From Patescibacteria group bacterium (GTDB lineage: Bacteria; Patescibacteriota; Microgenomatia; UBA8517): a stretch of 64,000 nucleotides of DNA. The position numbers and the translations under genes are program-made. The stretch covers positions 64,783 to 128,782 of the forward strand of contig JAHJHG010000009.1 of the NCBI GenBank assembly GCA_018823885.1, in the 5' to 3' direction. A model generated the notes under the pieces. The model was not told the origin of the DNA. It saw only the letters and a program-made list of their open reading frames with translations, and searched no databases. Shown piece after piece: positions 2,159-36,440 of the stretch; position 1 is the first letter of the stretch; each line of letters begins with the position of its first letter.

Positions 2159-3271
2159 ATGCCCGTTAAGTTTAACATGCAAAACGCTGAGCAAAGTTTC
2201 AAAAAACCAGACAAAAGAAGAATTGTCAGATCTAGAATAAAAAGAAGATTATTAAAACACATCTGGCTTGTAAGAGTTGGCCTGATTACATTAATTTTCT
2301 TGGGCATATATATTTTCTACCTTCTCGCTTCTTTGATATTCGGGAGATTGGGTGTTACCAGTTATTTGGGACTTATTGGAGATTTTATTTTTACACCGAC
2401 CCAAAAAATCCAAACAATGGAAGATAGGACAAATATTCTTATTTTAGGTAAAGGGGGCGAGGGGCATGACGCCCCTGATTTAACAGACACTATTATCTTT
2501 GCCTCAATTACTCATATTAATCCTTCCTTGTCTTTAATTTCGCTTCCAAGAGATATTTGGATACCTGAACTCCGCGCCAAATTAAATAGTACCTATTACT
2601 GGGGAAATCAACAGAAAGAGGGTGGAGGCTTAATTCTTACTAAATCAACCGTCGAGAGTATTGTTGGACAACCAGTACATTACGGACTAGTAATAGATTT
2701 TTCGGGTTTTATGAAAATAGTTGACGTTCTAGGAGGTATAGAAGTAGATATTGAAAGAGGGTTTGTGGATGAAAAATATCCAGTTGTGGGAAAGGAAAAT
2801 GATGAATGTGGCGGAGACATGGAGTATAAGTGTAGATACAAAACAGTAAGCTTTGAGAAAGGATTGCTTATTATGGATGGAGAGACGGCCCTAATTTTTG
2901 TGAGGTCAAGGAATGCTGAGGGAGATGAGGGAACGGACTTGGCTCGTGAGACAAGGCAACAAAAAATCCTAGCCGCCATTCAGACAAAAATATTAAGTTC
3001 AGAAGTCCTTCTTTCCCCTAAAAAAATGCTTTCTGCGTGGGAAGTGGTGCGAGAGTCTATAGAAACGGACGTGGATGCTTCGGCCGGTGCGATATTGGCG
3101 AGGAGACTGTTTCAAACAAGAAATCAGATAGAATCACATATCTTGTCTGGAGAGCTATTGATAAACCCCTCCATTCAATTTAAATATGACAATTTATATG
3201 TTTTTATACCACAAGCAGGAAGTTGGGAAGAGGTGCAAAGTTGGGTAGAAGGTTTGTTGTTTAGTAACTAA
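2159..3271 (+). CDS. LytR-CpsA-Psr (LCP) family cell-wall polymer ligase/attenuator-like protein
   Basis: 370 aa; N-terminal basic stretch + one TM helix, then LCP-like core (NILILGKGGEGHDAPDLTDTIIFASI ... LPRDIWIPELRAKLNSTYYWG ... ALIFVRSRNAEGDEGTDLARETRQQKILAAI). Confidence 0.75.
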   Translation: MPVKFNMQNAEQSFKKPDKRRIVRSRIKRRLLKHIWLVRVGLITLIFLGIYIFYLLASLIFGRLGVTSYLGLIGDFIFTPTQKIQTMEDRTNILILGKGGEGHDAPDLTDTIIFASITHINPSLSLISLPRDIWIPELRAKLNSTYYWGNQQKEGGGLILTKSTVESIVGQPVHYGLVIDFSGFMKIVDVLGGIEVDIERGFVDEKYPVVGKENDECGGDMEYKCRYKTVSFEKGLLIMDGETALIFVRSRNAEGDEGTDLARETRQQKILAAIQTKILSSEVLLSPKKMLSAWEVVRESIETDVDASAGAILARRLFQTRNQIESHILSGELLINPSIQFKYDNLYVFIPQAGSWEEVQSWVEGLLFSN

Positions 3272-4418
3272 CCCAACCAAATTTATTAATCCAAATTACT
3301 CCCCATAGATTTACCAGTATTCCCAGAAAGAGAAAAACCCAATGGATTGGTTTAAGATTAGTTTTTGCAATCCCCTTTATTGTTAGAAAAATGAGAAATG
3401 GATAGAAATCGACGGCAAAGCGATAACCGAACTGGGCAAAACCTGTTCCCCCATGTATTCCTACAACAAGGAAAATCAATAATATAGAAAGCCATGAAAG
3501 CTTCACAGCCATTTCTTTTAATGAAGCCTTGAGTGCAAAGACAAATGCGGGAGTTGTCATCCAAATAGCCATACCGGCCCAAGAAGGCTGGAGATAGGGG
3601 AAATGGTTTAGAATTTTAGGGCCCATCAAAAATGCAACTTTCAGATCTTCAAGAATATAAGAAGGATGGACAATGCCTTTTGAGAACCAAGGTTCATTTA
3701 GGGTTCCCGGTATCAAAAAATATCCTTTATTCCATGGAACACCAAAGCGTGTGAAATTGTAAATTGAATCAAAAGCGAAAAACATTAAAAAAGGAATGGC
3801 AAGTTTTAGATAACTTTTTATGTTTGGCAAGCTTTTCCTTAATAGAAATAGATAAAGCGGTAGAGAAAGAATTGTGTGAGGTCGAGACAAATATGCAGCT
3901 CCCAAGAGGATGGACACAATAATTGGTCTTTTTTTATCAAGACTTTCCGTAAGAGCGGCCATGAGGAAGAAGGCAGCCGTAATTTGACCCAGATACCATA
4001 CAGAACCGACGGATGATAAGTAAAATATTATGCTTCCGAGTCCTACCAAAATCCCTGACCACAATGCTAGTTTTTTATCTTTTTTGATCAAATATGACAA
4101 CTTCATAGTTAACACAACCAATAGTGCGCCGAGGAAATGAGCGAGATATTGTTGAGGAAAACTTTTTCCAAAAAGAAAAACAAAGGGCATTAGAAGAATT
4201 GCCGGCATGGGCGGGTAAACAACGTAAAAGGTGTTATTCTTGGCAGGGATTAATTCGCTTAACCAAGAAGGGTTTTCTTCTAACCAATATTTACCTTGAA
4301 GAAAAGAATGGCTAAGTCGGGTAAAATAGTCGTAAGGTGTATCGCCGGGGGAGGTAACTAGGTAAATTATGAAGATTAGAAAGAAAGAGACGAGAATTAA
4401 TTTTTTCACTTTCACCAT
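3261..4418 (-). CDS. polytopic membrane protein, GT-C fold glycosyltransferase-like (ArnT/PMT-like)
   Basis: 385 aa, ~10 hydrophobic helices, aromatic/Pro-rich loops typical of lipid-carrier dependent glycosyltransferases; 5' end overlaps the divergent GT-C gene by 50 nt, so one start may be mis-set. Confidence 0.55.
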   Translation of the reverse strand: MVKVKKLILVSFFLIFIIYLVTSPGDTPYDYFTRLSHSFLQGKYWLEENPSWLSELIPAKNNTFYVVYPPMPAILLMPFVFLFGKSFPQQYLAHFLGALLVVLTMKLSYLIKKDKKLALWSGILVGLGSIIFYLSSVGSVWYLGQITAAFFLMAALTESLDKKRPIIVSILLGAAYLSRPHTILSLPLYLFLLRKSLPNIKSYLKLAIPFLMFFAFDSIYNFTRFGVPWNKGYFLIPGTLNEPWFSKGIVHPSYILEDLKVAFLMGPKILNHFPYLQPSWAGMAIWMTTPAFVFALKASLKEMAVKLSWLSILLIFLVVGIHGGTGFAQFGYRFAVDFYPFLIFLTIKGIAKTNLKPIHWVFLFLGILVNLWGVIWINKFGWVSY

Positions 4419-6801
4419 TTTACTTCTTCTTTTTACTGCTTTGGTAGTAAGACTTGCTCTTTCTCCATTTGGGACGTTGACCCTTGATCAAAATACCTTT
4501 ATAGGTTGGAGCAATAGGTTGATTGAGGTCGGATTTAGCAGATTTTATGATACATGGTCTGATTATTTGCCTGGCTATTTATATGTACTTTGGGCTTTAG
4601 GTTGGATTAAAGAAGCAATTTCATTTCCGAGCGTGCTTCTTTTTAAACTACCCGCAATATTTTCAGATGTACTAACTGGTTTCTTAATTTACAGGATTGT
4701 TGGGAAATTAAAAAACAAAAGATGGGGAATAGTTGCATCAGGACTGTATCTTTTTAATCCTGCGGTTTTGGCAAATTCCGCTTTATGGGGACAAGCAGAC
4801 TCTTTAACGGCACTTTTCTCACTTTTGGCCATATGGCTCATTGATATTAATCCACTTATTTCGTCCCTTGCTCTTGCATTCGGTACTTTAATAAAGCCGC
4901 AAGCCGTGCTTGCAGCGCCAGTTGTTTTATTTGTGATGTTGAAAAGAAAGTGGACAACACAGAAAATACTAATCTATATTTTCACTTCCCTTGTATTTTT
5001 TGTGATAGCCTTTATTCCTTTTGCTGGCGAAAAAAGTTTGGTGTTATTTATTGTAGAAAGAATCTCGGCAACTTTAGGGCAATATCCTTATACAAGTGTC
5101 AACGCCTTTAATTTTTGGGGACTTTTTGGTTTTTGGCAGAAAGATGTTTTTGTAACCTCGCTTTTAGGTATTGCAATAACGGCGGCGCTTTTCTTGTTTG
5201 GCGCAAAGAAATTATGGAAAAGAAAAAACTCTCGCTATTTGTTGTTGGCTACAATTTTTGCCGCGAATTTTCTCTTTTTTACAAGAATGCACGAGAGGCA
5301 TCTTTTACCTGTATTTGCACCTTTGGCAATAGGTGCTTCGCTATGTTGCAATCTTTGGTTGTCATATGCTGGCTTCTCCCTGGTTTATATCATTAATCTT
5401 TACTATTCTTTTATCTGGATTACACAAAGCTTTACAAGTGTTCTCCCGCCTTCAGTGATTGTTGTTTGCATCATGTTTAATCTTGGTTTTCTTTTGCTGA
5501 TTCTTTTTGAGATATTTAAGAAGAAGGAGCACCAACACTTTGTCCAATTTTCCAAAAATCTAAACAAAAAACTTCGTTCTTTTTCAAAAGTTCCGAACCA
5601 AAAGATAAAAAAACTATCCGCAAGAACCGTAAAGATTTCTCTGTTTGCTATTTTTATCTTTGCATTGGTTTCCCGCACTTTGTGGCTAACCACCCCCAGC
5701 AATGAGTATTTTGATGAGGTCTATCATGCTTTTACAGCAAAAAGAATGCTTCATGGTGATCCAAAAGCTTGGGAGTGGTGGAACACGTCTCCAGAAGGGT
5801 TTGCTTATGAATGGACGCATCCTCCTTTGGCGAAGTTAGGAATGGTCTTAGGAATGGTTGTTTTTGGAGAGACCCCTTTTGGATGGAGAATTCCGGGAGC
5901 GCTGCTTGGAGTAGGTAGTGTCATGTTGATATATTTAATTGCAAAGAAACTTTTTAAAGATGAGTTAATAGGTTTGCTCTCGGCAAGTGTTTTTGCGCTA
6001 GAAGGACTCCCCCTTGTTATGAGCAGGATTGGAATGAACGATAGCTATCTTTTGTTTTTCTCACTTCTGGCGCTTTATTTGTTTCTTGTTGATAAATGTT
6101 TTCTGTCAGCAATTTCTTTTGGCCTTGCTATTTCATCTAAGTGGAGCGCTGTTTGGTTAGTTCCGATCCTGTTTGTTTCCTTCTTTGTTTTGAAGAAGAA
6201 ATTTAAAATAAAGTATTTCTGGTTTCTAATTTTGCCGCCATTGATTTATCTTGCTTGCTATATTCCAATGTTTTTAACAGGACATGATTTTAATACTTTT
6301 GTTGGGGTTCAAAAACAGATGTGGTGGTATCATACGAGACTTGAGGCAACTCATTCGTATACGTCTTCTTGGTGGAGTTGGCCATTTTTAGTAAGACCGA
6401 TTTATTTATATACAAGCAATGTTGTTAACGGGACTGTTGCTAGGATTTATGCGATGGGTAATCCAATTATTTTTTGGTTTGGTATATTTTCTATTCTATT
6501 GGGCGCCTTTTTTGCTTTTGTTGAGAAGAATAAAAAACTGGGTTTTGTAATTTTTTCCTACTTTATATTTTTTGCCCCCTGGGCGGTAGCTCCGAGAATC
6601 ATGTTTTTATACCATTATTTGCCCTCAATCCCTTTTATGGCAATCGCAATTGGATTTGTATTAAAAAGGTTTCCGCGAATAATTATTCCTTTTCTGGCGA
6701 CTTCTTTAATTGTCTATATTTTCTTTTTTCCACACTTGGCGGGTTTACAGGTACCAGTTTGGTTAGATAAATTGTATTACTTAATTCCTTCGTGGAGATG
6801 A
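4369..6801 (+). CDS. large membrane glycosyltransferase with two GT-C (PMT/ArnT, GT39/GT83-like) modules
   Basis: 810 aa, >16 TM helices; second module carries EYFDEVYHAFTAKRML...WEWWNTSPEGFAYEWTHPPLAKL...FGWRIPGALLGV, the DE-loop/first-helix signature of dolichyl/undecaprenyl-phosphate-sugar dependent glycosyltransferases; first module has a similar TM-loop layout. Confidence 0.65.
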   Translation: MKIRKKETRINFFTFTILLLLFTALVVRLALSPFGTLTLDQNTFIGWSNRLIEVGFSRFYDTWSDYLPGYLYVLWALGWIKEAISFPSVLLFKLPAIFSDVLTGFLIYRIVGKLKNKRWGIVASGLYLFNPAVLANSALWGQADSLTALFSLLAIWLIDINPLISSLALAFGTLIKPQAVLAAPVVLFVMLKRKWTTQKILIYIFTSLVFFVIAFIPFAGEKSLVLFIVERISATLGQYPYTSVNAFNFWGLFGFWQKDVFVTSLLGIAITAALFLFGAKKLWKRKNSRYLLLATIFAANFLFFTRMHERHLLPVFAPLAIGASLCCNLWLSYAGFSLVYIINLYYSFIWITQSFTSVLPPSVIVVCIMFNLGFLLLILFEIFKKKEHQHFVQFSKNLNKKLRSFSKVPNQKIKKLSARTVKISLFAIFIFALVSRTLWLTTPSNEYFDEVYHAFTAKRMLHGDPKAWEWWNTSPEGFAYEWTHPPLAKLGMVLGMVVFGETPFGWRIPGALLGVGSVMLIYLIAKKLFKDELIGLLSASVFALEGLPLVMSRIGMNDSYLLFFSLLALYLFLVDKCFLSAISFGLAISSKWSAVWLVPILFVSFFVLKKKFKIKYFWFLILPPLIYLACYIPMFLTGHDFNTFVGVQKQMWWYHTRLEATHSYTSSWWSWPFLVRPIYLYTSNVVNGTVARIYAMGNPIIFWFGIFSILLGAFFAFVEKNKKLGFVIFSYFIFFAPWAVAPRIMFLYHYLPSIPFMAIAIGFVLKRFPRIIIPFLATSLIVYIFFFPHLAGLQVPVWLDKLYYLIPSWR

Positions 6802-6803
6802 TA

Positions 6804-7415
6804 TTAGAGAGCCAGAGCGAGCGATATTAATATTAAGAGAATACCAGCTGCTCCACCGATAATGGTTGGGTAGGACACTCCGGCGTCAGGTAGCTCTGGT
6901 TCGGCAGTTGGTGAGCCGGTTGGAGTGGCAGTCGGACTTTCGGTTGCTGTTTCAGTGCAATCCTCTTCTTCGGGAAAGTCTTGATGGCGACAGGTATCCG
7001 TAGTCGCATAACAAATATAATTTTCGTCGACATCCTGACATTGAGCATCGGTTGTACATGCAGAATCACAAGCATAGGTTACTACTTCACCACAAGCGCA
7101 AGTTTCCTCCTCTGGACAATCTGGATTGACGCAAAGCAATTCACCTCCGACATCCTGACATTCTAGACCAGACGAGCAATTATCAGGAGTATCAGTACAA
7201 GCTTCGTAACAAATTGGCCCCTCGGGGATTGTAAGGGTAAATGTCAAAGCAGTACAGCTTTCAGGAGCCGCTGCTTTTGGTTTACTTGTTGGGGCAGTAG
7301 GTGCAACAGGCTCTTGTCTTAATTGATAAAGCCTTATTGCCGTAAACACAGCAATGCCGGCGAGTGCGATTGTTGCTATTACTATTAATATTGTTACGAT
7401 CCTTTTCTTATTCAT
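6804..7415 (-). CDS. small cysteine-rich surface protein: N-terminal signal/anchor, internally duplicated Cys module, C-terminal LPDAG + hydrophobic tail
   Basis: 203 aa; N-term MNKKRIVTILIVIATIALAGIAVF (TM); ~20 Cys in two repeated modules (..ECQDVGGELLCVNPDC.. / ..QCQDVDENYICYATTDTC..); C-term PT-rich linker then ELPDAGVSYPTIIGGAAGILLILISLALAL; last gene of the PilN-PilO operon. Confidence 0.6.
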   Translation of the reverse strand: MNKKRIVTILIVIATIALAGIAVFTAIRLYQLRQEPVAPTAPTSKPKAAAPESCTALTFTLTIPEGPICYEACTDTPDNCSSGLECQDVGGELLCVNPDCPEEETCACGEVVTYACDSACTTDAQCQDVDENYICYATTDTCRHQDFPEEEDCTETATESPTATPTGSPTAEPELPDAGVSYPTIIGGAAGILLILISLALAL

Positions 7416-7416
7416 A

Positions 7417-8613
7417 TTAGAACCAGCCTAAAGTTGTATGATGTATTTCCGCATTTATAGTAAATGTGGTTATGTCTTCTGGAATAGTATATTCGTCGTA
7501 GAATTCGTTAGTACTTGGTCTTTTTGTGGTAACTTCGGTTCTTAAGACTCCATTTATGGTGAATCTTGCTTTATCAAAACTTCCGGAATTAGTCGTACCC
7601 GCAACAGTAAAGCGGACAACATCACCAGCCACTAGACTTGAAAGATTTGTTATTGGGCTCCATTCGATATCAAACACACTTATATCTAAACAAGATGCGG
7701 TGGTTTCCGAGTCGTCCGAGTCGTCCGAGTTGTCATCACCTGGGTCGTCATAGACGTATGATCCGACACAAAATTTTGATGCAAAACTAGTACCAGCAGT
7801 TCCAGGTACTTCGTCTCCTGTACAACTAGGAGCGCTTTGAGGGCAAGTGCAACCGCTTGAACAAACTGGCTTTCCGTCAACTAATCCGATGCAGACTGGC
7901 CACCCACAATAGCCGTAATCGCCAATATGTATGCTTGGAGTTTGAGTGAAACATTGAGAAGTACTTGTATCATTTTCATCATCGGAATCGGAAGTTCCAC
8001 TACATTCGGTTGGTGTATTACCATCTGCGATACATTGTTCATAGTCCGAAAGTTCAGGTACTGATACAGCAACACAATATTTTCCATATGGCGTGGTCAC
8101 ACAATTACCGCTTTTGCACTCAGCGTCATAACTACAACGCTCTCCATTGTCTTTTAGGGATTCACTGTAGGGGATATAGGCTTCTTCTCTGATATCCTGT
8201 TGGTTTTGGACAAGAATTACACCTGCCCCGATTCCTCCAACTAAAACCAAAACCCCAAGAATTGTTGCAATCATCCTTTTACCCACGGGCTTTTTCCCTC
8301 CTGTATCGGAGGTTGTTATTACTGGTGGGATATCAGGAATTGTTTGAGTGCCCTCAGTTGCTCCTGTGACTTGAGCGGGTGTAGTTGTTTCTTCTGGTTT
8401 CTTTTCTTCAACCATTGGTGGAGGTGGAGAAACGGCTCCATCTTCCATTGGTGGTGGAGGTGTGTCAATCGCCTGACCCGAAATATCAAAAGGTGTAGCT
8501 GTTGGGGATGAAACAGGGGTTGTGGGCGCCGTTGTTGTAGCTGATTGGCCAACAATCGGTGTTCCTCCGGTGATTGGTTGATTTGTATTTGTAGCTTTGT
8601 CTTCGTCGGGCAT
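7417..8613 (-). CDS. membrane-anchored Pro/Thr-rich, cysteine-rich extracellular protein
   Basis: 398 aa; PT-rich N-terminal 110 aa, TM helix MIATILGVLVLVGGIGAGVILVQNQQ (paralogous to the anchor of the upstream 444-aa protein), then Cys-rich region (CxxxxCxSGNC, CSSGCTCP) and an acidic DDPGDDNSDDSDDSE tract; start may be the internal Met before the TM. Confidence 0.6.
   Translation of the reverse strand: MPDEDKATNTNQPITGGTPIVGQSATTTAPTTPVSSPTATPFDISGQAIDTPPPPMEDGAVSPPPPMVEEKKPEETTTPAQVTGATEGTQTIPDIPPVITTSDTGGKKPVGKRMIATILGVLVLVGGIGAGVILVQNQQDIREEAYIPYSESLKDNGERCSYDAECKSGNCVTTPYGKYCVAVSVPELSDYEQCIADGNTPTECSGTSDSDDENDTSTSQCFTQTPSIHIGDYGYCGWPVCIGLVDGKPVCSSGCTCPQSAPSCTGDEVPGTAGTSFASKFCVGSYVYDDPGDDNSDDSDDSETTASCLDISVFDIEWSPITNLSSLVAGDVVRFTVAGTTNSGSFDKARFTINGVLRTEVTTKRPSTNEFYDEYTIPEDITTFTINAEIHHTTLGWF
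7705..7737. repeat. 9-bp tandem repeat (tccgagtcg x2 + tccgagttg) inside the Cys-rich protein gene
   Basis: seen directly; encodes DDSDDSDDN acidic tract on the minus strand. Confidence 0.85.
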
Positions 8614-8632
8614 GTTTTAATAATACATTCCT

Positions 8633-9967
8633 TTAGGTTTTTCTAAAAGTAAAGAAACCAAGCGTCAAACTAAAAACAATTAGTCCTAATCCCATTATGG
8701 AGTATAAAATTGTCGGTTTCAAGCTTCCAGAATCTGGGATTCCAGAAGCAGTGGATGTAGGTGTTGCAGTTGGTGTTGCCGAAGCAGTAGGTGACGGACT
8801 TATAGTAGGTATTGGCGATGATGTAGGCGTTGCTGATGGCGTTGATTCAAAGGCTGGTCCTTCGGCTGCTTGAACTACGAAAGTGCGTGTCAGAGTTGTC
8901 AAAATCCCAGTAGCATCACGCCAGGTAATTGTAATTTTGTGCACTCCCTCGCTGAGTCCCTCAGGAGGACTCCAGCTCCAATCACCCGAAGAACTTATTG
9001 TTGTTTGGTCAGTAACGGGGTTGGACTCGACTGTTATAGTAATTGTTGTTCCAGGGGGGCCTTCACCGAAAAATTCGGGTTCGGTGCTCGTGACAATTTC
9101 TCCTTCCTCATGGCTTTCTAATGTGACCTTTTCTGTGGAAAGACCGGTAGTGTCGTCGTCTGTTATTTCAAATTTTGAAGATTCAGTTGCATCGTCAGGA
9201 AGATTGACGTTTGCTTTTGGAATACCCCCGATTTCACTAGCCGGTTCATTTTTAAAATCCAAACTTTCACCTAGAATAATTGGAGGAGTGGGTTTAGCTG
9301 AGGCTGGATAAATCTGAGCTGTGGCAACACCACGAGAACCCGCCTGGACAGATATTTCAATAAGAGTTGTGGTTTCGTTTATTTCGATAAAGGAAGATAA
9401 ATTCTGATTTCTTGCAGAGGAAATAGGGATGACCCAACTACCATTCTGTGAAGTTGTAGTTGACAAAGGACTTGCTCCAGCCAGTGTTATATAAACAATT
9501 GCTTTCTCGGCAGGGGTTCCGGTTGCCGTAAGAATTGTACCAGATATTGAATTTGAGATTGTTTGGCCAAAAAGCTCTGGGCCAGTAGTTATTTGCCAGG
9601 GAACTCCATTGTTGTCAAAAGTGGTCCCGTCCGAGCTTATTTTAAAAAAATATGTTCTATCAGGAGAGAGTCCTTGAGCGGTGACAGAGTGAGTTTCACT
9701 TATTTCACTTATTTCATTAAGCTCCGTTTTTGTTAGTGAGTTTTCGGTTTCTCCCCAAAGAATAAATCCGCCAGTTTCTTTATCAGTTGCCCAAGAGACA
9801 GTGAAAGAAGAGTCCGTTATATTTGTGATTCTTATATCTTTTGGCGAAGTCTGTGGAGTAGCTCCTAATCTAAAAATTTGTTTGTTTTGGACAAGAAGAA
9901 TTCCGGCTGCTAGACCAAAAACCAGAAGAATAATACCTAAGAAAGTGGGAATTTTGTTTTTTCTCAT
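8633..9967 (-). CDS. surface protein with N-terminal anchor, fibronectin-III-like domain and C-terminal IPDSG-TM-RKT sorting-signal-like tail
   Basis: 444 aa; N-term MRKNKIPTFLGIILLVFGLAAGILLVQNKQ; FN3-like segment (ITNITDSSFTVSWATDKETGGFILWGE...LSPDRTYFFKISS); beta-rich middle; PT-rich linker then GIPDSGSLKPTILYSIMGLGLIVFSLTLGFFTFRKT at the extreme C-terminus. Confidence 0.65.
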   Translation of the reverse strand: MRKNKIPTFLGIILLVFGLAAGILLVQNKQIFRLGATPQTSPKDIRITNITDSSFTVSWATDKETGGFILWGETENSLTKTELNEISEISETHSVTAQGLSPDRTYFFKISSDGTTFDNNGVPWQITTGPELFGQTISNSISGTILTATGTPAEKAIVYITLAGASPLSTTTSQNGSWVIPISSARNQNLSSFIEINETTTLIEISVQAGSRGVATAQIYPASAKPTPPIILGESLDFKNEPASEIGGIPKANVNLPDDATESSKFEITDDDTTGLSTEKVTLESHEEGEIVTSTEPEFFGEGPPGTTITITVESNPVTDQTTISSSGDWSWSPPEGLSEGVHKITITWRDATGILTTLTRTFVVQAAEGPAFESTPSATPTSSPIPTISPSPTASATPTATPTSTASGIPDSGSLKPTILYSIMGLGLIVFSLTLGFFTFRKT

Positions 9968-10323
9968 TGAATTATGTCTCCTGATTCTGTGGCTTCATCG
10001 GTTTCATTTGTCGCACTTTCTGTTGCCTGTTCTTGTTCTTCTGGTAATTGTGTGGGCGCAGGAGAGGCAGTAGGTGATGGACTGGGAGACGAAGTTAGAA
10101 TTATTTCTGCTAATTCATGTTCCTGGAAAAATAACTTATTAACAACTTTACTGAGTGTTATTGTATCGAGCGTGGGAGAAATAGGCTCCAATATTTCATC
10201 CGGGACTTTTATGGGAACCTCAGAAGTGAAAGAGCGATAGGCACTAAATCCAATCCAAAACAACACAGTGATTAGGGTTAATATTCCTAAAACTACCAAG
10301 TTGGGTTTCTTTTGCTTTTTCAT
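9964..10323 (-). CDS. small bitopic membrane protein with acidic Ser/Pro-rich C-terminus (pilus-operon component)
   Basis: 119 aa; MKKQKKPNLVVLGILTLITVLFWIGF TM, then SPSPSPTASPAPTQLPEEQEQATESATNETDEATE; start and stop codons overlap neighbours (translational coupling). Confidence 0.5.
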   Translation of the reverse strand: MKKQKKPNLVVLGILTLITVLFWIGFSAYRSFTSEVPIKVPDEILEPISPTLDTITLSKVVNKLFFQEHELAEIILTSSPSPSPTASPAPTQLPEEQEQATESATNETDEATESGDIIQ

Positions 10324-10994
10324 TTTTCTTCCGTATTTGAGTTCTCCTTAAGATAAGGTGTTCGGCCAGTAACCACAAGAACCAGATTTTGTGTCTCTTC
10401 CAGTTGCGGAGAAATGATATTGAGAGCATCGATTTTTACAGGTCTTCTCATGTCCTCCAAGGCGGAAAGAAAATTGACTACTCCTTGATAACTTCCAGCA
10501 ATACTTATTGAAAAAGTAATTCCTTTTGACTCTTCGGGTAGCGGTTGTAGTTCGTCTTTTGATCTTTTTTCCTTCTCATCACCAAGAAGAGTTATCTCGC
10601 CTATTGTAATTCCTAGTAAATTTACGGGATAACTTGTTGCAAGGCCCTCTACTTGTCGGACAAAAAGATCGGGCGCAGGGTTATCAGGAATGGCTGTTTC
10701 AAGAAGTTTGATTCGCGCCCCTTCTTGAATGTATAAGGTTTGTGCTTGTTGTAGATTTTGGATTTTTGTGTTCATTTTATCGACAGTTTCTTCTTTTGTT
10801 TCTATTTCTTTAAGAAGCTCGATAATAGTGAGGAGTGTTGGTTTTAGGGCAAAAAGAGCAAAAAAAGAAATTGTTACTAAAGTGAGAATTAATTCCAAAA
10901 AACTCTTTAAGTCTTGCCTCTGTTTGTAAATGTTTACGATATTCAAAAAATACGATCGATATCTTAGATAATCTTTTCTCCAGCCCAATGCCAT
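10320..10994 (-). CDS. pilO: type IV pilus assembly protein PilO-like
   Basis: 224 aa; short cytoplasmic N-term, one TM, coiled-coil (EIETKEETVDKMNTKIQNLQQAQ) then ferredoxin-like repeat segment ITFSISIAGSYQGVVNFLSALEDMRRPVKIDALNI resembling PilO cores; 1-nt gap from pilN. Confidence 0.65.
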   Translation of the reverse strand: MALGWRKDYLRYRSYFLNIVNIYKQRQDLKSFLELILTLVTISFFALFALKPTLLTIIELLKEIETKEETVDKMNTKIQNLQQAQTLYIQEGARIKLLETAIPDNPAPDLFVRQVEGLATSYPVNLLGITIGEITLLGDEKEKRSKDELQPLPEESKGITFSISIAGSYQGVVNFLSALEDMRRPVKIDALNIISPQLEETQNLVLVVTGRTPYLKENSNTEEK

Positions 10995-10995
10995 A

Positions 10996-11559
10996 TTATT
11001 TTCCTCCTTTGCTGTTTAGTGTCAATTTAAGCGAAAAAGTTAATAAAACTTGAATTTCTTTGTCCGTGCTAATTTGAGTTATGGCTACTTCCTCGAATTC
11101 GTCGCTCGCATCCAAATTTGCAACAAATTGAGCAATCCCTCTTTCGTTGGGCGAAACGCCCTCTATTTTTATGTCATCGCCAACAAAGGAAAAAGAAGAA
11201 AGGACAATCTCAGGGGGAACAAGTGAGGAGGTAGTATTTAAGTGGCCAGTAGTCGGCTTATCTACGGCTGTTAGTTCGGAGAAGATACTCAGCTTTTTTT
11301 GAGCACCCCGAAACTCGTTCTCAAAATCAACAGAAGCGACAAGGACGGCCTGCCTTTGCTTAATCAGGTCGTTTAAGTCAGCTGATTTTGCGTCAAGCCA
11401 AAAACGTGACAGAAAGACCATCATTACAAACACCTCTGTAATAATCACTATTACCCTGAAACTAGAAAGAAGCCAGGCTAAAACACGACCAAGTGTTGAT
11501 TGGGCAAACTCTTCCTGGGGAAGTAGGTTTATTCTATTTTTCTTTTTTCGGGCAGCCAT
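10996..11559 (-). CDS. pilN: type IV pilus assembly protein PilN-like
   Basis: 187 aa; N-terminal RINLLPQEE (the INLLP PilM-binding motif of PilN) followed by a single TM and periplasmic/extracytoplasmic domain. Confidence 0.7.
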   Translation of the reverse strand: MAARKKKNRINLLPQEEFAQSTLGRVLAWLLSSFRVIVIITEVFVMMVFLSRFWLDAKSADLNDLIKQRQAVLVASVDFENEFRGAQKKLSIFSELTAVDKPTTGHLNTTSSLVPPEIVLSSFSFVGDDIKIEGVSPNERGIAQFVANLDASDEFEEVAITQISTDKEIQVLLTFSLKLTLNSKGGK

Positions 11560-11675: not shown

Positions 11676-11948
11676 TTATTTTTTTGAAGATTTCTTGGGT
11701 TTTTTTGAAGATTTCTTGGGCAATAATTTAGAAAGACCGCTTTTTATTCTGGCTGCCTTGTTTCGGTGGATGATGTTTCTTTTTACGGCACGGTCTGTCA
11801 GAGAAATTGCTTCCCCAACTGTTTTTCCCGATTTTTCTTTTTTTGCAAGTCTTACGGCAATTTCAAGACGAGATTTAAGAGTGCGGTTTATTAACGCTTT
11901 CTTTTTTGATGACCTTAAAGCTCTTTTGGCTGTTTTTGTAACTGGCAT
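11676..11948 (-). CDS. rpsT: 30S ribosomal protein S20
   Basis: 90 aa; MPVTKTAKRALRSSKKKALINRTLKSRLEIAVRLAKKEKS... typical S20; Lys-rich C-terminal extension encoded by a perfect 21-bp tandem duplication. Confidence 0.85.
   Translation of the reverse strand: MPVTKTAKRALRSSKKKALINRTLKSRLEIAVRLAKKEKSGKTVGEAISLTDRAVKRNIIHRNKAARIKSGLSKLLPKKSSKKPKKSSKK
11679..11720. repeat. perfect 2 x 21-bp tandem duplication (tttttttgaagatttcttggg) at the 3' end of rpsT
   Basis: seen directly at 11679-11699 and 11700-11720; encodes KKSSKKPKKSSKK tail on minus strand. Confidence 0.9.
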
Positions 11949-12081: not shown

Positions 12082-13815
12082 ATGGTTAATAAGATTATTT
12101 CAAAAAGTAAAAAACTGCTTACTTCGCCACAATCTTCTGTTCTATCGGCAGCAACAATAATCATGCTAATGGTGATTGCTTCTCGCATACTAGGTTTGGT
12201 TCGCCAAAGAGTATTGGCACATTACTTTTTACCGGCTGATTTGAGTTTATTTTTTGCAGCATTTAGACTCCCAGATTTGATATTTGAAGTTCTGGTTTTT
12301 GGCACATTTTCTTCTGCTTTTATCCCTGTCTTCACCAAGGCGCTTAAGAAAGGAAATTCTGATGCTTGGGAAATAGCTGGGTATGTTACAAACATAAGCC
12401 TTTTGATTTTTGGAAGTTTTGCTCTTCTGGCTGGTATTTTTGCAAATAATTTGTATGCCATTTTTGCGCCTGGTTTTGGACCGGCCGAGAGAGTAGAGAT
12501 TGTAAAAATTGCTAGAATACTTTTCGCAGCCCAAGGCTTTTTCGTAATAAGCTATGTTTTGACTGGAGTTTTAGAATCATTAAGGCGTTTCTTGATTCCT
12601 GCCCTGGCTCCTCTGTTTTACAATTTGGGAATTATTTTGGGAACGATACTTTTAGTGTCAGACATGAAGCTTTTATCTCCGGCAATCGGTGTTTTTGTTG
12701 GGGCGGGTTTGCATTTTTTGATTCAATTACCATTGGCGATAAAGCTTGGTTTCAGGTTTATACCATCGATTCGTTTGACTAAAGATGTAAGAAAAATCGG
12801 AAAGCTCGCGCTACCAAGGGTAATAGAACTTTCCTTTTTGCAAATATCTAAAACAGTTGAGCTTTTCTTGGCATCATTAATATCGACTGCTTCATATACG
12901 TACTTCACTTTTGGTAACTCTTTACAGCTCTTGCCTGTTGGACTTTTTGGAACCTCTATTGCAAAGGCCGCTCTTCCTACGTTGGCACGGCAGGCAGAAG
13001 ACAAAGCGCAATTTAGACGAACTCTTTTTAATGCGCTTTATCAAATTGTTTTTTTGGTGTTGCCCGTAGCCACGATCCTAATTGTTCTAAGAATACCGCT
13101 AGTGAGACTTGTTTTCGGCACTGAGATATTTGATTGGGAGGCAACTGTGCAAACCGGCATAGTGGTTTCTTCATTTGCGATGGGGGCCGTTTTTCAGGCA
13201 GCCAACTCCCTGCTTGCCCGGGCGTTTTATGCATTGCATGATACAAAGACCCCAGTTATAGTTTCGATAAGTGGAATTATCATAATAGTACTCGCCGACT
13301 TTATTTTTATTAAAGGATTTGGACTGCCTGTTTGGGGGTTGGCTCTTGCCTTTTCCATCGGAAGTGCCTATCAAGCAATCTTACTCTTTTCCCTTTTAAG
13401 CAAGAGGGTGGGGAAAAGCTCTTTCATTAAACTAGCTGTCCCCATTTTAAAATCCGGAATTTCTGCTGTTGGGGCTGGTTCTGTTATGTATTTTGTTCTT
13501 AAAATTTTTGACAGATCAGTTTGGGTCAAAAGACTGTCGTTTTTGGGAAAAATAGAGGCTACGTCAGTTATTCCTTTTGAAAAATTTGTTTTAGATACGC
13601 GCTATACGGCCAATTTATTGATTTTGACAATTGCGGTTTCTTTAATGGGAGCCTTTGTCTATTTAGGAATAGCCATTTTGTTAAAACAAAAAGAAGTAGG
13701 GATATTTTTTGACTTACTAAAGAGAACTTTTATAAAGCACAAGATAACCCCTATTCCGATCAAAAAACAAGAACAAATTACTCCAACACAGACAGATACG
13801 ACCTCTATTCAATAA
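12082..13815 (+). CDS. murJ: lipid II flippase MurJ (MviN)
   Basis: 577 aa, 14 predicted TM helices; N-terminal ...IIMLMVIASRILGLVRQRVLAHYF and internal motifs characteristic of MurJ/MviN; C-terminal extension with extra TM helices. Confidence 0.85.
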   Translation: MVNKIISKSKKLLTSPQSSVLSAATIIMLMVIASRILGLVRQRVLAHYFLPADLSLFFAAFRLPDLIFEVLVFGTFSSAFIPVFTKALKKGNSDAWEIAGYVTNISLLIFGSFALLAGIFANNLYAIFAPGFGPAERVEIVKIARILFAAQGFFVISYVLTGVLESLRRFLIPALAPLFYNLGIILGTILLVSDMKLLSPAIGVFVGAGLHFLIQLPLAIKLGFRFIPSIRLTKDVRKIGKLALPRVIELSFLQISKTVELFLASLISTASYTYFTFGNSLQLLPVGLFGTSIAKAALPTLARQAEDKAQFRRTLFNALYQIVFLVLPVATILIVLRIPLVRLVFGTEIFDWEATVQTGIVVSSFAMGAVFQAANSLLARAFYALHDTKTPVIVSISGIIIIVLADFIFIKGFGLPVWGLALAFSIGSAYQAILLFSLLSKRVGKSSFIKLAVPILKSGISAVGAGSVMYFVLKIFDRSVWVKRLSFLGKIEATSVIPFEKFVLDTRYTANLLILTIAVSLMGAFVYLGIAILLKQKEVGIFFDLLKRTFIKHKITPIPIKKQEQITPTQTDTTSIQ

Positions 13816-33515: not shown

Positions 33516-35738
33516 ATGGATTTAAAAAGTTTTTTATCAACAAAAGAAGATAAATCGGTTGAATATTACTGGGCTTTGGTTATAGAGCCGGAGTGGGTGC
33601 AGGCTGGAATTTGGGAAATTGTGGAAAATAAAGCTCGGGTCATTGCAGTTAGCCCCCCAGCGGCGTGGGCTTCTGAAGAAGAATTGACAAGCGCTTGTGA
33701 CACAGTTCTTTCTTCTGCTGTTTCCTCTTTCCCGGAAGATGCGAAAGAGCCTTCAAAAACTGTCTTCGGCGTATCTTCAACTTGGGTGTCAAAAGGGGAG
33801 ATAAAAGTAGAATATTTAGAGACTCTAAAGAAAATTTGTGCAGAGCTTTCTCTAACGCCGGTAGGCTTTGTTGTTTTACCGGAAGTGATGGCTCACTTGA
33901 TTAAATCAGAAGAGGGGTCTCCGCTCAGTGGTGTGGTTTTGGGGGTTGGAAGTCAAAACATTGAACTCTCGATTTTTAGATTGGGGAATTTGGTTGGTAC
34001 CGCGAATATTGCAAGAAGTGTATCTGTGGTTGATGATGTAGCGGAAGGTCTGACGAGATTTGCAGACGGAGATAATTTGCCTTCACGATTTCTTCTTTAT
34101 GACGGAAAAGAAGGAGAGCTTGAAGAAACAAAACAAGCTTTACTTAAAGCAAATTGGAGTAATTATGAAAAGATAAAATTCCTTCATACTCCTAAAATTG
34201 AGGTTATTACACCCAAAAGAAAAGTTCATGCAGTATCTTTGGCTGGAGCATCGGAGATTGCTGATGTTTCCTTTCTTGAATCAAAGAATGAGGAAAGACA
34301 GGAAGAAAAGGTTTCTTCGAAACCTGACCTTATGTCCACGGCGGTAAGTCCCGCAAAACCTGAAGATGTAGGGTTTGTGATTGGACAAGACGTGGTTTCT
34401 GCACAGGGACGTGAGCCCGCGGTCGATGCGATTGAGAAGTCAGCTCAAGTAGAAGTACAAAAAGAATCGATAGAGAACATACGAGATAAGAAGGTGACGC
34501 AACAACCTGGAGGATTCAAAAGTAATTTTGTTTTAGATATTTTTAGAAAAATGAAACTAAATATTGCTTCTCTTTCGGCAAAAAAACCAAAAGTAAAAAT
34601 GGGTGGCAAGAGAACGCTTGCCATTGGGGGCGGGTTTCTTGTTTTTCTCATACTCATCGGTTTTATCTCTTGGTGGTTCTTTCCCAAGGCAACGGTTACT
34701 ATTTATGTTTCTCCTAAAAAACTTGATGAAAAAATGACAATTTCCGTAGATTTAAATATTTCTGATTCCAACTTTTCGAAAGGGATACTCCCTGGAAACA
34801 TAATTGAAACGACCGTATCGGGTGAGAGAACGACACCGACTAGTGGGACAAAAACAATTGGAGAGACAGCCAAAGGGAGTGTGACAATTCAAAACGGAAC
34901 TGCTCAGGCGTTAAAACTTCCAGCGGGTACTTTTATATATTCTGCGAATGATTTAAAATTTGCCCTTGCAGCTGAAGCTTCGGTGTCTGCCGCTCTTTCG
35001 CCTAGCTCACCTGGGACGGATACTGTTGAGGTCGAAGCAGCCGGTATTGGTGCGGAATACAATTTAGCGAAAGATGAGAGTTTTTCCGTTGGGAATTATC
35101 CTAAGGCAGAAGTTGATGCGGTGGCGATATCAGATTTTTCAGGAGGGTCAAGCCGCCAAATATCAGCTGTTTCAGAAGAAGATATGGATGAGTTAGAAAA
35201 CGATTTAATAGAGGAGCTTCTTGAAGAAGCAAAAAATGAATTAATAAAAAAAGCTTCAGAAGACCAATATTTAATTGAAGAATCTATGGAAACTACTCCT
35301 TCCACAAAGAGTTTTAGTAACAAAGTGGGCGATGAGGCAGACAACCTAAAGCTGTCTCTTTCCTTGGATGTAATAAGTTTGGTGGTTGAAAACCTAGCAC
35401 TTTCAGATTTTGCAAAAGAGGTTCTAAAAGACAAAATTCCTTCGGGATTTGTTTTAAGAGAAGATCAAATTGATATGCGTTTTGAACTGGAAGGAGAGGA
35501 CGATGAAGTATATGAACTAATTGTTTACATGGAAGTAAACCTTTTGCCTGAGATGAAACCTGATGAGATTGCCAAAGAAATCGTAGGTAAAAGAACTTCT
35601 CTCGCGAAAGATTATTTGACCTCAATCTCAGGATTTACGAGAGCAGAGATAAATTTAAAGCCACAATTACCCGGATGGCTTGGTACGCTTCCGCATGTTG
35701 TAAAGAATATAGAAGTAGAGCTTGCTGCTGAACGGTGA
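33516..35738 (+). CDS. large bitopic membrane protein; cytoplasmic N-domain with possible FtsA/PilM-like actin-fold features, extracytoplasmic C-domain
   Basis: 740 aa; single TM (LAIGGGFLVFLILIGFISWWFF) near residue 365; N-domain segments (YYWALVIEPEWVQAGIW..., SGVVLGVGSQNIELSIFRLGNLVGTANIARS) reminiscent of the two beta-sheet cores of FtsA/PilM-like ATPases but lacking phosphate-binding Asp/Gly motifs; C-domain acidic with coiled-coil-like stretch. Confidence 0.55.
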   Translation: MDLKSFLSTKEDKSVEYYWALVIEPEWVQAGIWEIVENKARVIAVSPPAAWASEEELTSACDTVLSSAVSSFPEDAKEPSKTVFGVSSTWVSKGEIKVEYLETLKKICAELSLTPVGFVVLPEVMAHLIKSEEGSPLSGVVLGVGSQNIELSIFRLGNLVGTANIARSVSVVDDVAEGLTRFADGDNLPSRFLLYDGKEGELEETKQALLKANWSNYEKIKFLHTPKIEVITPKRKVHAVSLAGASEIADVSFLESKNEERQEEKVSSKPDLMSTAVSPAKPEDVGFVIGQDVVSAQGREPAVDAIEKSAQVEVQKESIENIRDKKVTQQPGGFKSNFVLDIFRKMKLNIASLSAKKPKVKMGGKRTLAIGGGFLVFLILIGFISWWFFPKATVTIYVSPKKLDEKMTISVDLNISDSNFSKGILPGNIIETTVSGERTTPTSGTKTIGETAKGSVTIQNGTAQALKLPAGTFIYSANDLKFALAAEASVSAALSPSSPGTDTVEVEAAGIGAEYNLAKDESFSVGNYPKAEVDAVAISDFSGGSSRQISAVSEEDMDELENDLIEELLEEAKNELIKKASEDQYLIEESMETTPSTKSFSNKVGDEADNLKLSLSLDVISLVVENLALSDFAKEVLKDKIPSGFVLREDQIDMRFELEGEDDEVYELIVYMEVNLLPEMKPDEIAKEIVGKRTSLAKDYLTSISGFTRAEINLKPQLPGWLGTLPHVVKNIEVELAAER

Positions 35739-35756: not shown

Positions 35757-36440
35757 ATGGACAATAAACTTTTAAGAATCGCCGCAATTATTTCTGGAAT
35801 TTCAGGGATAGTAATTCTATTTTCTGTTGTTCTCCCCATTGTTTCTTACCAGTCGATTTCAAATCAGAAATATCCATCCCTTTTAAGCCCTATTGTTCAA
35901 AGTACTTCAAAGGTCACCCTAGAGGAAGTTGACTATACAAAGGCAAGTAATTGGTTTATTGACAACAAAGACACGAGTTTTTCAACTTCAAGTATTTCTC
36001 ACTATGTTATTTCTATTTCTAAGTTGGGAATAAAAAAAGCAACGGTTACAATTGGGGGAGAGGATCTGTCAGGAAGCCTTGTTCAGTACCCTGGTACCGC
36101 CTTGCCGGGAAAGAACGGGAATGCGGTTATTTTTGGTCATTCAATCTTGCCTCAGTTTTATGACCCTGAAGATTATTTGTCAATTTTTTCTACCTTGCCA
36201 ACTCTTGATGAAGGAGACGAAATTCAACTTGATTATGATGGTGTAGTTTATAAATATATAGTGGAGAAAATGTTTGAGGTGTTGCCGTCAGACATAGGGG
36301 TTTTAGAACAAGACAAAAGCGATTCATTTTTAACACTTGTGACTTGTGTTCCTCCGGGGCACCCCTTAAAACCAAAAAGATTAATAATTAGGGCTAGAAT
36401 AGTGCCCATAGAACAAGCAAATGCGAATATTAGCAATTGA
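35757..36440 (+). CDS. sortase family transpeptidase
   Basis: 227 aa; N-terminal TM anchor; catalytic His context (NAVIFGHSILP), active-site TLVTC motif (TLVTCVPPGH) and downstream Arg (RLIIRAR). Confidence 0.75.
   Translation: MDNKLLRIAAIISGISGIVILFSVVLPIVSYQSISNQKYPSLLSPIVQSTSKVTLEEVDYTKASNWFIDNKDTSFSTSSISHYVISISKLGIKKATVTIGGEDLSGSLVQYPGTALPGKNGNAVIFGHSILPQFYDPEDYLSIFSTLPTLDEGDEIQLDYDGVVYKYIVEKMFEVLPSDIGVLEQDKSDSFLTLVTCVPPGHPLKPKRLIIRARIVPIEQANANISN

Follow-up and report, generated by a model that had tools for sequence, protein, structure and literature searches.

The 64,000 nucleotides analysed here, hereafter the window, come from contig JAHJHG010000009.1 (positions 64,783 to 128,782) in assembly GCA_018823885.1 of a Patescibacteria group bacterium. 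On the minus strand of the window, six tightly packed genes between positions 6804 and 11559 encode two proteins that profile searches assign to the type IV pilus alignment proteins PilN and PilO, followed by four proteins named here p119, p444, p398 and p203. This six-gene operon is clade-wide and vertically inherited in uncultivated, small-genome Patescibacteria of the Woesebacteria type. We tentatively read it as an extension of the pilus alignment complex that would reach from membrane to wall and be exposed at the surface of a cell lacking an outer membrane, a reading to which we give somewhat less than an even chance. PilN, PilO and the FN3 protein (p444) are already named in public annotation, where p119, p398 and p203 are “hypothetical”. 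In the literature searched, we found no description of this operon arrangement, which agrees with an earlier note, made from the sequence alone, that had called it undescribed.

Layout and Conservation of the Operon

All six open reading frames (ORFs) that the earlier note had placed in this interval are present there. Its wording of gaps or overlaps of 1–4 nt holds for four of the five junctions (pilN/pilO, +1; pilO/p119, −4; p119/p444, −4; p398/p203, +1 nt), the fifth, p444/p398, being a gap of 19 nt. The gene for ribosomal protein S20, rpsT, lies directly upstream of pilN, as it does in nearly all related loci. A promoter and terminator scan detected no terminator-like site in the 116-nt spacer between rpsT and pilN and placed the best promoter-like site upstream of rpsT.

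A PilN-based scan with one genome per species yielded 80 loci, almost all of them from Woesebacteria/Microgenomates and one from Blackburnbacteria, and presence was counted in those 57 for which 5.2 kb or more of downstream sequence was available. PilN and PilO occur in all 57, p203 in 56, p119 in 54, p398 in 52 and p444 in 51; the complete set of six was found in 44 of the 57. There is a subclade in which p444 is absent or truncated. Loci whose PilN is as little as 37% identical still show the order rpsT-pilN-pilO-p119-p444-p398-p203, and the median intergenic gaps are 1, −2.5, 1, 6 and 3 nt (46–57 loci per junction). A p203-based metagenome scan retrieved 80 loci, with the same arrangement in all informative ones, and three distant contexts of p398/p203 homologues showed the same neighbourhood again. 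Since the operon genes are conserved in more than 80 species (30–85% identity), they are real genes and not chance ORFs. Several public assemblies contain this same locus.

In related loci, pilM was not found between rpsT and pilN. Three related genomes carry an insert in this spacer (L083, 7293–8958; L048, 6492–7493; L024, 2093–3031), from which it follows that the spacer tolerates insertion without loss of the operon. The insert in L083 includes a transposase and an AAA-type helper, a pair that looks IS21-like by eye, among other ORFs, and the remaining inserts consist of unannotated ORFs; none of the three is PilM-like as judged by eye, without a profile test.

Identity of PilN and PilO

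PilN scores 47.9 bits on Pfam PF05137 (cutoff 22.8), and its family profile matches the PilN chain of Myxococcus xanthus, 3jc8_N, with E = 5.4e-6. The N-terminal motif RINLLPQEEF occupies residues 9–18, INLLP being encoded at 11518–11532, and N11, L12, L13 and P14 are invariant among 24 homologues. This short cytoplasmic N-terminus is followed by one transmembrane (TM) helix, with the hydropathy peak at residues 30–48. The gene for PilO, named “type 4a pilus biogenesis protein PilO” by NCBI, follows directly after pilN; the protein is also bitopic (TM residues 32–50). Its Pfam score is marginal (PF04350, 23.1 bits versus a cutoff of 22), and a profile built from 35 orthologues matches M. xanthus PilO (3jc8_O) with E = 2.5e-8. 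The same profile matches 5uvr (E = 0.012) and 2rjz (E = 0.024), the similarity to Pseudomonas aeruginosa PilO being weak. Judged by these profiles, PilN and PilO are genuine type IV pilus alignment proteins, as the earlier note had proposed.

The INLLP peptide is the PilM-binding element in characterised systems (Karuppiah and Derrick 2011, as cited in PMC13319060). Its invariance argues that a PilM partner persists somewhere in these genomes, and we infer that PilN would still bind, via INLLP, a PilM encoded elsewhere.

Pilus Genes Around the Operon

The operon stands apart from the rest of a pilus machinery. In the 64-kb window, neither pilM nor a pilB/T ATPase, pilC platform, pilD peptidase or prepilin gene was found, just as the earlier note had remarked for the genes alongside; the remaining content is housekeeping (chaperones, nusA/infB, pnp, ftsK, alaS, rpoBC and ribosomal protein operons). 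The 10 kb beyond each window end also contain no pilus machinery genes, just an orphan canonical prepilin of 153 aa (MKIQKG/FTLVEILVV, the slash marking the processing position; Pfam N_methyl; L169, 17645–18106, minus strand). It is located on the same contig between a gene for RmuC and one for a UvrD/PD-(D/E)XK helicase, about 6 kb left of the window start and about 12 kb from the operon, and its presence implies that this genome has type IV pilins. A tblastn search of 1.5 Mb of related loci with a P. aeruginosa PilT query gave no match; run without a positive control, it counts as weak negative evidence.

The N-terminal anchors of p119, p444, p398 and p203 were considered as prepilin signals and rejected. 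A regular-expression scan for class III signals (G at −1, F/M at +1, E at +5) returned none among the window ORFs, and N_methyl matches none of the four proteins. The pilus-tip role that the earlier note had entertained is thus unsupported, as none of the four has such a signal.

Pilus components including PilM, PilN and PilO co-localise in numerous genomes of the candidate phyla radiation (CPR) (PMC6744442), and Saccharibacteria keep PilM-N-O together with PilB/C (PMC11623550). For one complete Microgenomates genome, a single pilus locus with PilM is described, and PilN and PilO are not mentioned (PMC7143001). Because other CPR loci keep PilM/N/O with pilus genes, the detachment of pilNO would be a feature of the present lineage.

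This bears on a possible role of the downstream proteins as cargo. The four proteins could be folded surface proteins that are exported by Sec and cross the peptidoglycan with the help of a type IV pilus or pseudopilus piston, a monoderm analogue of type II secretion, and hence be co-expressed with PilN/PilO. Pilus machinery that helps surface proteins through a thick wall has a precedent (bioRxiv 10.1101/2024.11.04.621531), but no ATPase, platform or pilin gene is co-located with the operon, and p119 and p203 are small. As cargo would not need the conserved, paralogous TM anchors described in the next section, we rank this explanation below an extension of the alignment complex and regard it as quite improbable.

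Paralogous and Conserved Membrane Anchors

The paralogy of the N-terminal anchors of p444 and p398, claimed in the earlier note, is supported by profile–profile comparison: over 37 columns, the two 42-residue segments align with an hhalign probability of 98.2% (E = 4.8e-14), whereas other pairs of TM segments, serving as controls, do not exceed 77% and for the most part stay below 41%.

In five of the six proteins (PilN, PilO, p119, p398 and p203), conservation peaks in the TM segment, a wider pattern that may be more informative than the paralogy of two anchors. Conservation of the TM region is 70–86% in PilN, 61–72% in PilO, 60–72% in p398 and 66–84% in p203 (residues 11–40), and the ectodomain middles of p398 and p203 are conserved at about 10–25% (p203 residues 61–110: 10–25%). 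The N-terminal anchor of p444 is conserved at 53–63%, about the same as the rest of that protein. When hidden Markov models of the anchors were run against the genome loci, 133 of the 135 matches fell inside the operon. Cleaved signal peptides normally evolve fast, and the simplest reading of the conserved TM segments would be that they are retained, interacting helices.

The Small Bitopic Protein p119

The earlier note’s small acidic bitopic protein is p119: its isoelectric point is 4.4, it has a single N-terminal TM helix and it contains no Cys. An alignment of 35 orthologues confines the conserved part to the N-terminal 65 or so residues, which consist of MKKxKxP, a TM segment with the motif LTxITxxFWV and an ecto-motif VPxEILxPLxPxLD; the tail that follows is variable, acidic and Pro/Thr-rich. 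Neither the single sequence nor the 35-member family has a match in Pfam, NCBIfam or PDB. Relatives of p119 nevertheless make up 538 cluster representatives at E ≤ 1e-3 in a set of 1.84 billion proteins; among the 150 matches listed, they measure 64–167 aa and align at or near their own N-terminus. The identification of p119 as PilP was rejected: it has no lipobox Cys and no similarity to PilP or its HR domain, and its conserved part spans only about 65 aa.

Ectodomains of p444, p398 and p203

The 444-aa protein contains the FN3 domain that had been noted before, plus a CarboxypepD_reg-like and a Big_13/BIg domain (Table 1). The profile of its orthologues matches FN3 structures with E = 1e-6 and the chain 2yn3_A, deposited as a putative inner membrane protein, with E = 1e-5. 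The earlier note had called p398 PT-rich and Cys-rich and p203 Cys-rich, and rightly so: each has 15 Cys, and Pro, Thr and Ser together make up 26–31%. Between orthologues, the middle domains of both families are swapped among DUF11, CARDB, Stig1-like and TSP3 modules.

In p398, the Pro-rich N-terminal tail is predicted to be cytoplasmic, because basic residues precede the TM helix (positive-inside rule). The middle region is variable and Cys-rich, and a C-terminal anchor is lacking; some homologues bear CARDB, Stig1 or TSP3 domains. The structural check that the earlier note had suggested was carried out on p398 and p203 with AlphaFold2 (AF2) models and Foldseek; it delivered a modelled Ig-like domain at the C-terminus of p398 and no significant match. 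In the p398 model (residues 121–398), the predicted local distance difference test (pLDDT) exceeds 90 in the C-terminal 95 or so residues alone, and Foldseek against PDB returned generic Ig/CARDB/FN3-like beta-sandwiches, none at E ≤ 1e-3. The p203 model has a mean pLDDT of 75.9, with a helix at residues 3–33 and beta-hairpin modules; the knottin-like Foldseek matches of its cystine modules were not significant.

Two further features of these ectodomain proteins and their tails were observed. Many species (L028, L033, L050, L055 and others) have a proline motif, DLPPLPPDFQ, in the predicted cytoplasmic tail of p398 (residues 1–113), which in the window reads DTPPPPMEDG...SPPPPM; the motif could serve to dock a partner in the cytoplasm. 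The number of Cys in p203 and p398 is odd (15 each). One conserved Cys of the p203 family lies in the strand motif CxxLxFTL after the first stalk, outside the six-Cys knot (C116...C153), and the odd Cys of p203 and p398 might serve in an intermolecular disulfide or mark a donated strand.

Sortase-Type Signals and the Sortase

The earlier note had overlooked that p444 and p203 end in sortase-type signals. It had labelled the downstream products membrane-anchored or secreted; each indeed has a single N-terminal TM helix, and for p444 and p203 the more fitting description is that of sortase substrates that are likely anchored to the wall. Such tails occur in these two proteins only among all ORFs of the 64-kb window. 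In p444 orthologues, xPx[TSA]G is found in 53 of 66 (LPETG, VPVTG, IPQTG and others), and 51 of these 53 also have a basic tail. In p203, L175, P176, G179 and P183 are invariant among 42 homologues, and the orthologues carry LPx[AS]G in 55 and LPxVG in 7 of 64 cases. LPXAG is an accepted sortase motif in surface proteins of staphylococci and streptococci.

The window encodes a single sortase, with a TLVTC motif (Table 1), which is the candidate enzyme for the predicted signals of p444 and p203. It passes the NCBIfam model sortase_fam (51.8 versus 39.35) and none of the class A–F models, class C giving 48.9 bits against a cutoff of 160. In Microgenomates, sortase is reported to be almost ubiquitous (PMC6744442).

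Directly upstream of the sortase gene, at 33516–35738 on the plus strand, a 740-aa protein is encoded, which comprises a cytoplasmic N-domain of about 370 residues, one TM helix and an extracellular Baseplate_J-like domain (Pfam, 25 bits). The N-domain appears actin-like, resembling PilM or FtsA by eye (GVVLGVGSQNIELSIF); it has no sequence match in Pfam, NCBIfam or PDB. This GspL-like architecture beside the only sortase of the window could be relevant to the handling of surface proteins.

The ectodomains and the sortase also bear on the idea that PilN and PilO were exapted to scaffold a structure other than a type IV pilus, built from the downstream proteins as a sortase- or donor-strand-assembled fibre. 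Related proteins have been diverted elsewhere: PilMNO homologues are reported to be co-opted by flagellar motors (PMC10823254), and PilN/PilO have been proposed to anchor an archaellum (PMC13319060). CPR bacteria moreover build non-type-IV pili with Ig folds, the Pam pili, composed of PamA/B pilins, PamC/D chaperones and the anchor PamR, which has FnIII domains and a C-terminal TM helix (bioRxiv 10.64898/2026.03.03.709456), and in the present operon p398 ends in an Ig-like domain while p203 has the conserved beta-strand motif CxxLxFTL. Such an exaptation is nonetheless very improbable in our view: the invariant, PilM-binding INLLP speaks for a PilN that still pairs with its canonical partner, the sortase gene lies 26 kb from the operon and its product does not pass the class C model, the ATP synthase context of the pam operon is absent and there is no chaperone-like gene. 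A pilin lysine motif of the YPKN type was not seen by eye (no formal search was made).

Two specific fibre types were considered separately. A sortase-assembled pilus is not supported, given that no class C sortase is adjacent and no pilin lysine motif was noticed on inspection by eye; the p444 consensus reads IYPQSAxPxP, in which the K of YPKN is, again by eye, not conserved. For a Pam pilus operon, the genomic context does not fit, with no ATP synthase genes within 10 kb and no match to a chaperone-like family.

Table 1. Features of the operon and associated genes (window coordinates; products ordered from rpsT to p203, followed by genes on the plus strand).
Feature	Position	Strand	Size, basis or remark
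rpsT (S20), directly upstream of pilN	11676–11948	−	Pfam/NCBIfam S20
PilN-like bitopic protein	10996–11559	−	187 aa
PilO-like bitopic protein	10320–10994	−	224 aa
p119, small orphan bitopic protein	9964–10323	−	119 aa
p444, multi-domain surface protein	8633–9967	−	444 aa
p444, FN3 domain	9623–9847	−	Pfam
p444, CarboxypepD_reg-like domain	9395–9550	−	Pfam
p444, Big_13/BIg domain	8888–9103	−	Pfam; Pro/Thr-rich stalk after it
p444, predicted C-terminal sorting signal: IPDSG, hydrophobic segment, RK tail (ends RKT)	8636–8740	−	read from sequence
p398, predicted N-in bitopic protein	7417–8613	−	398 aa
p398, Pro-rich N-terminal tail with conserved MPD start	8275–8613	−	about 113 residues; ortholog consensus
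p398, TM anchor, paralogous to that of p444	8176–8274	−	hhalign
p398, conserved C-terminal Ig-like beta-sandwich	7420–7716	−	AF2 model, conservation profile
p203, N-terminal helix with stalks and cystine-rich modules	6804–7415	−	203 aa
p203, N-terminal helix, LAGVAIFTAIRLYQLRQxxVAP	7296–7415	−	alignment of 42 homologues
p203, two small cystine-rich modules flanked by Pro/Thr stalks	~6957–7256	−	AF2 model
p203, predicted C-terminal sorting signal: LPDAG-VSYPT, hydrophobic segment to the last residue (...LALAL)	6807–6893	−	alignment
PMT-family (protein O-mannosyltransferase-like) membrane glycosyltransferase, convergent	4369–6801	+	Pfam PMT, PMT_2, PMT_4TMC
Sortase with TLVTC motif, the only one in the window	35757–36440	+	227 aa; Pfam Sortase, 77 bits

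Genes Surrounding the Operon

At its 3′ end, the operon converges with a gene for a PMT-family glycosyltransferase, the stop codons of the two facing genes lying 2 nt apart, and this gene holds the same position in most related loci. The enzyme is a candidate for glycosylation of the Pro/Thr/Ser-rich stalks. It is 810 aa long and has an extra membrane domain of about 400 residues at its N-terminus.

Genes for the cell envelope surround the operon in a conserved manner, at 2159–6801 and 12082–13815. They include murJ, divergent from rpsT, and genes for a 385-aa GT-C-like membrane protein and an LCP (LytR_cpsA_psr) enzyme. Two FemAB-family genes are located beyond the left end of the window, past uvrD (L087/L088/L169).

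Elsewhere in the window, the S10 ribosomal-protein operon shows an unusual interruption. Between rpsJ (49892–50200) and rplC (51507–52310), a 289-aa orphan ORF without Pfam match lies at 50352–51308 on the plus strand, directly followed by an 87-nt tRNA-like gene (Rfam tRNA, 49.8 bits), which ARAGORN cannot assign, reporting the anticodon as “gg”.

A Possible Extension of the Alignment Complex, or Neighbouring Surface Proteins

If the operon extends the alignment complex, PilN and PilO would remain pilus alignment proteins, and p119, p444, p398 and p203 would dock to them in the membrane through their conserved N-terminal helices; p119 would be a small adaptor that binds PilNO. Sortase would link the C-termini of p444 and p203 to peptidoglycan, and the adjacent PMT-family enzyme would O-glycosylate the Pro/Thr-rich stalks. 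The assembly would thereby tie the machine to the wall, taking over the role that PilP, PilQ and TsaP have in diderms, and would present outer domains that vary and are possibly adhesive. This reading draws support from the conserved compactness of the operon, the near-universal presence of its genes, the conservation maxima in the TM segments and the homologous, operon-specific anchors, and equally from the sorting signals together with a sortase in the window, the envelope-themed neighbourhood and the prepilin about 12 kb away. It also has a precedent in Chloroflexota, where PilN and PilO occur without PilM/P/Q and a LysM domain fused to PilO is part of a proposed wall-bridging scaffold (PMC13319060). 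A more elaborate version, in which a PilN/PilO/p119 core recruits p444, p398 and p203 via a shared TM docking element and sortase staples p444 and p203 into a covalently wall-anchored, glycosylated collar or conduit that replaces PilP/PilQ/TsaP, with swappable domains setting the specificity of attachment, is unlikely. A role of the operon in episymbiotic attachment is speculation.

Several results weigh against such an extension. Within 10 kb of the operon, no pilM, pilB, pilC, pilT or pilD was found in about 80 species, and p119, by its sequence, is without similarity to PilP. The sorting signals depart from the classical type: none of the 55 motif-bearing p203 orthologues has a basic tail (the proteins end in ...LLLAL), p203 reaches 12.7 bits on the Pfam model Gram_pos_anchor PF00746 (cutoff 20; E = 0.13) and p444 reaches 10.6 bits on TIGR01167 (LPXTG; cutoff 15.9; E = 0.73). 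Because these curated LPXTG models stay below threshold, we call the tails of p444 and p203 variant sortase-type signals and not confirmed substrates. The absence or truncation of p444 in a subclade implies that this protein is dispensable for whatever the core does. Finally, the whole neighbourhood of about 20 kb is equally syntenic in the clade, housekeeping genes included, with dnaK-grpE-hrcA-murJ on one side and the genes for PMT, the GT-C-like protein and the LCP enzyme, uvrD and two femAB genes on the other. The four downstream genes are co-conserved with pilNO, so that the refutation that the earlier note had named does not arise, and this makes a weak test, as everything nearby is co-conserved as well; the PilN genome scan, the p203 metagenome scan and the three individual look-ups found none of the downstream genes in a different context. 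The co-conservation is therefore inseparable from simple vertical inheritance.

The same synteny, in which the linkage to pilNO is not specific, favours the principal rival explanation: PilN and PilO would work in the pilus machine by themselves, and the four downstream genes would encode ordinary sortase-anchored or bitopic surface glycoproteins, either adhesins or structural proteins of the envelope, that share a transcription unit with pilNO only through the compactness of the genome and the gathering of envelope genes in this region. With FN3, BIg, CARDB, DUF11 and cystine-rich modules, their ectodomains resemble those of adhesins in general, their middle domains vary as expected of exposed adhesins, p444 can be lost and MurJ, PMT, LCP and FemAB concern the wall in general, not pili. 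On the other hand, these are single-copy genes in nearly every member of the clade, their start/stop overlaps are conserved across about 50 species, and their N-terminal TM helices, which are operon-specific in the sampled DNA, surpass the ectodomains in conservation, a pattern that would be unusual for plain secreted adhesins. We consider mere neighbourhood rather unlikely, though to be taken seriously beside the extension of the alignment complex that we tentatively favour.

Little is understood of the way in which type IV pili traverse the wall, and are fixed in it, when a cell has no outer membrane; in CPR bacteria, host attachment and DNA uptake are attributed to pili. An operon that joins alignment proteins to proteins with predicted sortase signals offers a testable candidate for the missing wall-spanning part of monoderm and CPR pili, and the four uncharacterised protein families that it brings to light have membrane helices of unusually high conservation. 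Were the four genes mere neighbours, they would still encode conserved surface proteins with non-canonical signals (xPx[TS]G and a tail-less LPxAG) in a neighbourhood of probable O-glycosylation.

Comparison with Known Systems

The PilM-PilN-PilO(-PilP-PilQ) operon of type IVa pili (P. aeruginosa, M. xanthus, Thermus) likewise has pilN followed by pilO, both products being bitopic and PilN carrying the INLLP motif, and further envelope proteins, there PilP and PilQ, are encoded directly downstream of pilO. In the operon described here, however, rpsT and not pilM precedes pilN, and the downstream genes encode neither PilP (no lipobox, no HR domain) nor a secretin, but lineage-specific bitopic proteins and proteins with sortase-type signals, in a cell without an outer membrane.

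In Actinomyces oris, GspA is reportedly a surface glycoprotein anchored by sortase, with a housekeeping sortase and an LCP enzyme involved. The LPXTG-type signal, the Ser/Thr/Pro-rich regions, an LCP-family enzyme and a membrane glycosyltransferase nearby are shared features. Unlike the present case, the GspA pathway has no PilN/PilO; here, the motifs are the variants IPDSG and LPDAG, p203 has no basic tail, and anchoring and glycosylation are predicted.

Among monoderm and CPR pilus loci, those of Clostridium and of Saccharibacteria (TM7x) resemble the present one in having PilN/PilO without an outer membrane and without PilQ (PMC6744442, PMC11623550). They differ in that PilM-N-O is there accompanied by ATPase, platform and pilins, whereas here pilNO is detached from these and joined to four surface-protein genes. 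Pam pili, for their part, consist of CPR-specific, Sec-exported surface proteins with Ig/FnIII folds and terminal TM helices that are encoded in one operon, and they are reported in Microgenomatia; the pam operon is described without PilN/PilO and beside ATP synthase genes, and the present operon has no chaperone-like gene.

In Litorilinea aerophila (Chloroflexota), PilN and PilO(-LysM) are encoded beside the archaellum cluster, occur without PilM/P/Q and are proposed to bridge the peptidoglycan by means of a wall-binding element (PMC13319060). That element is a LysM domain which forms part of PilO, and an archaellum is the partner machine; in the present operon, contact with the wall would be made by separate sortase-signal proteins, and the presumed partner is a type IV pilus.

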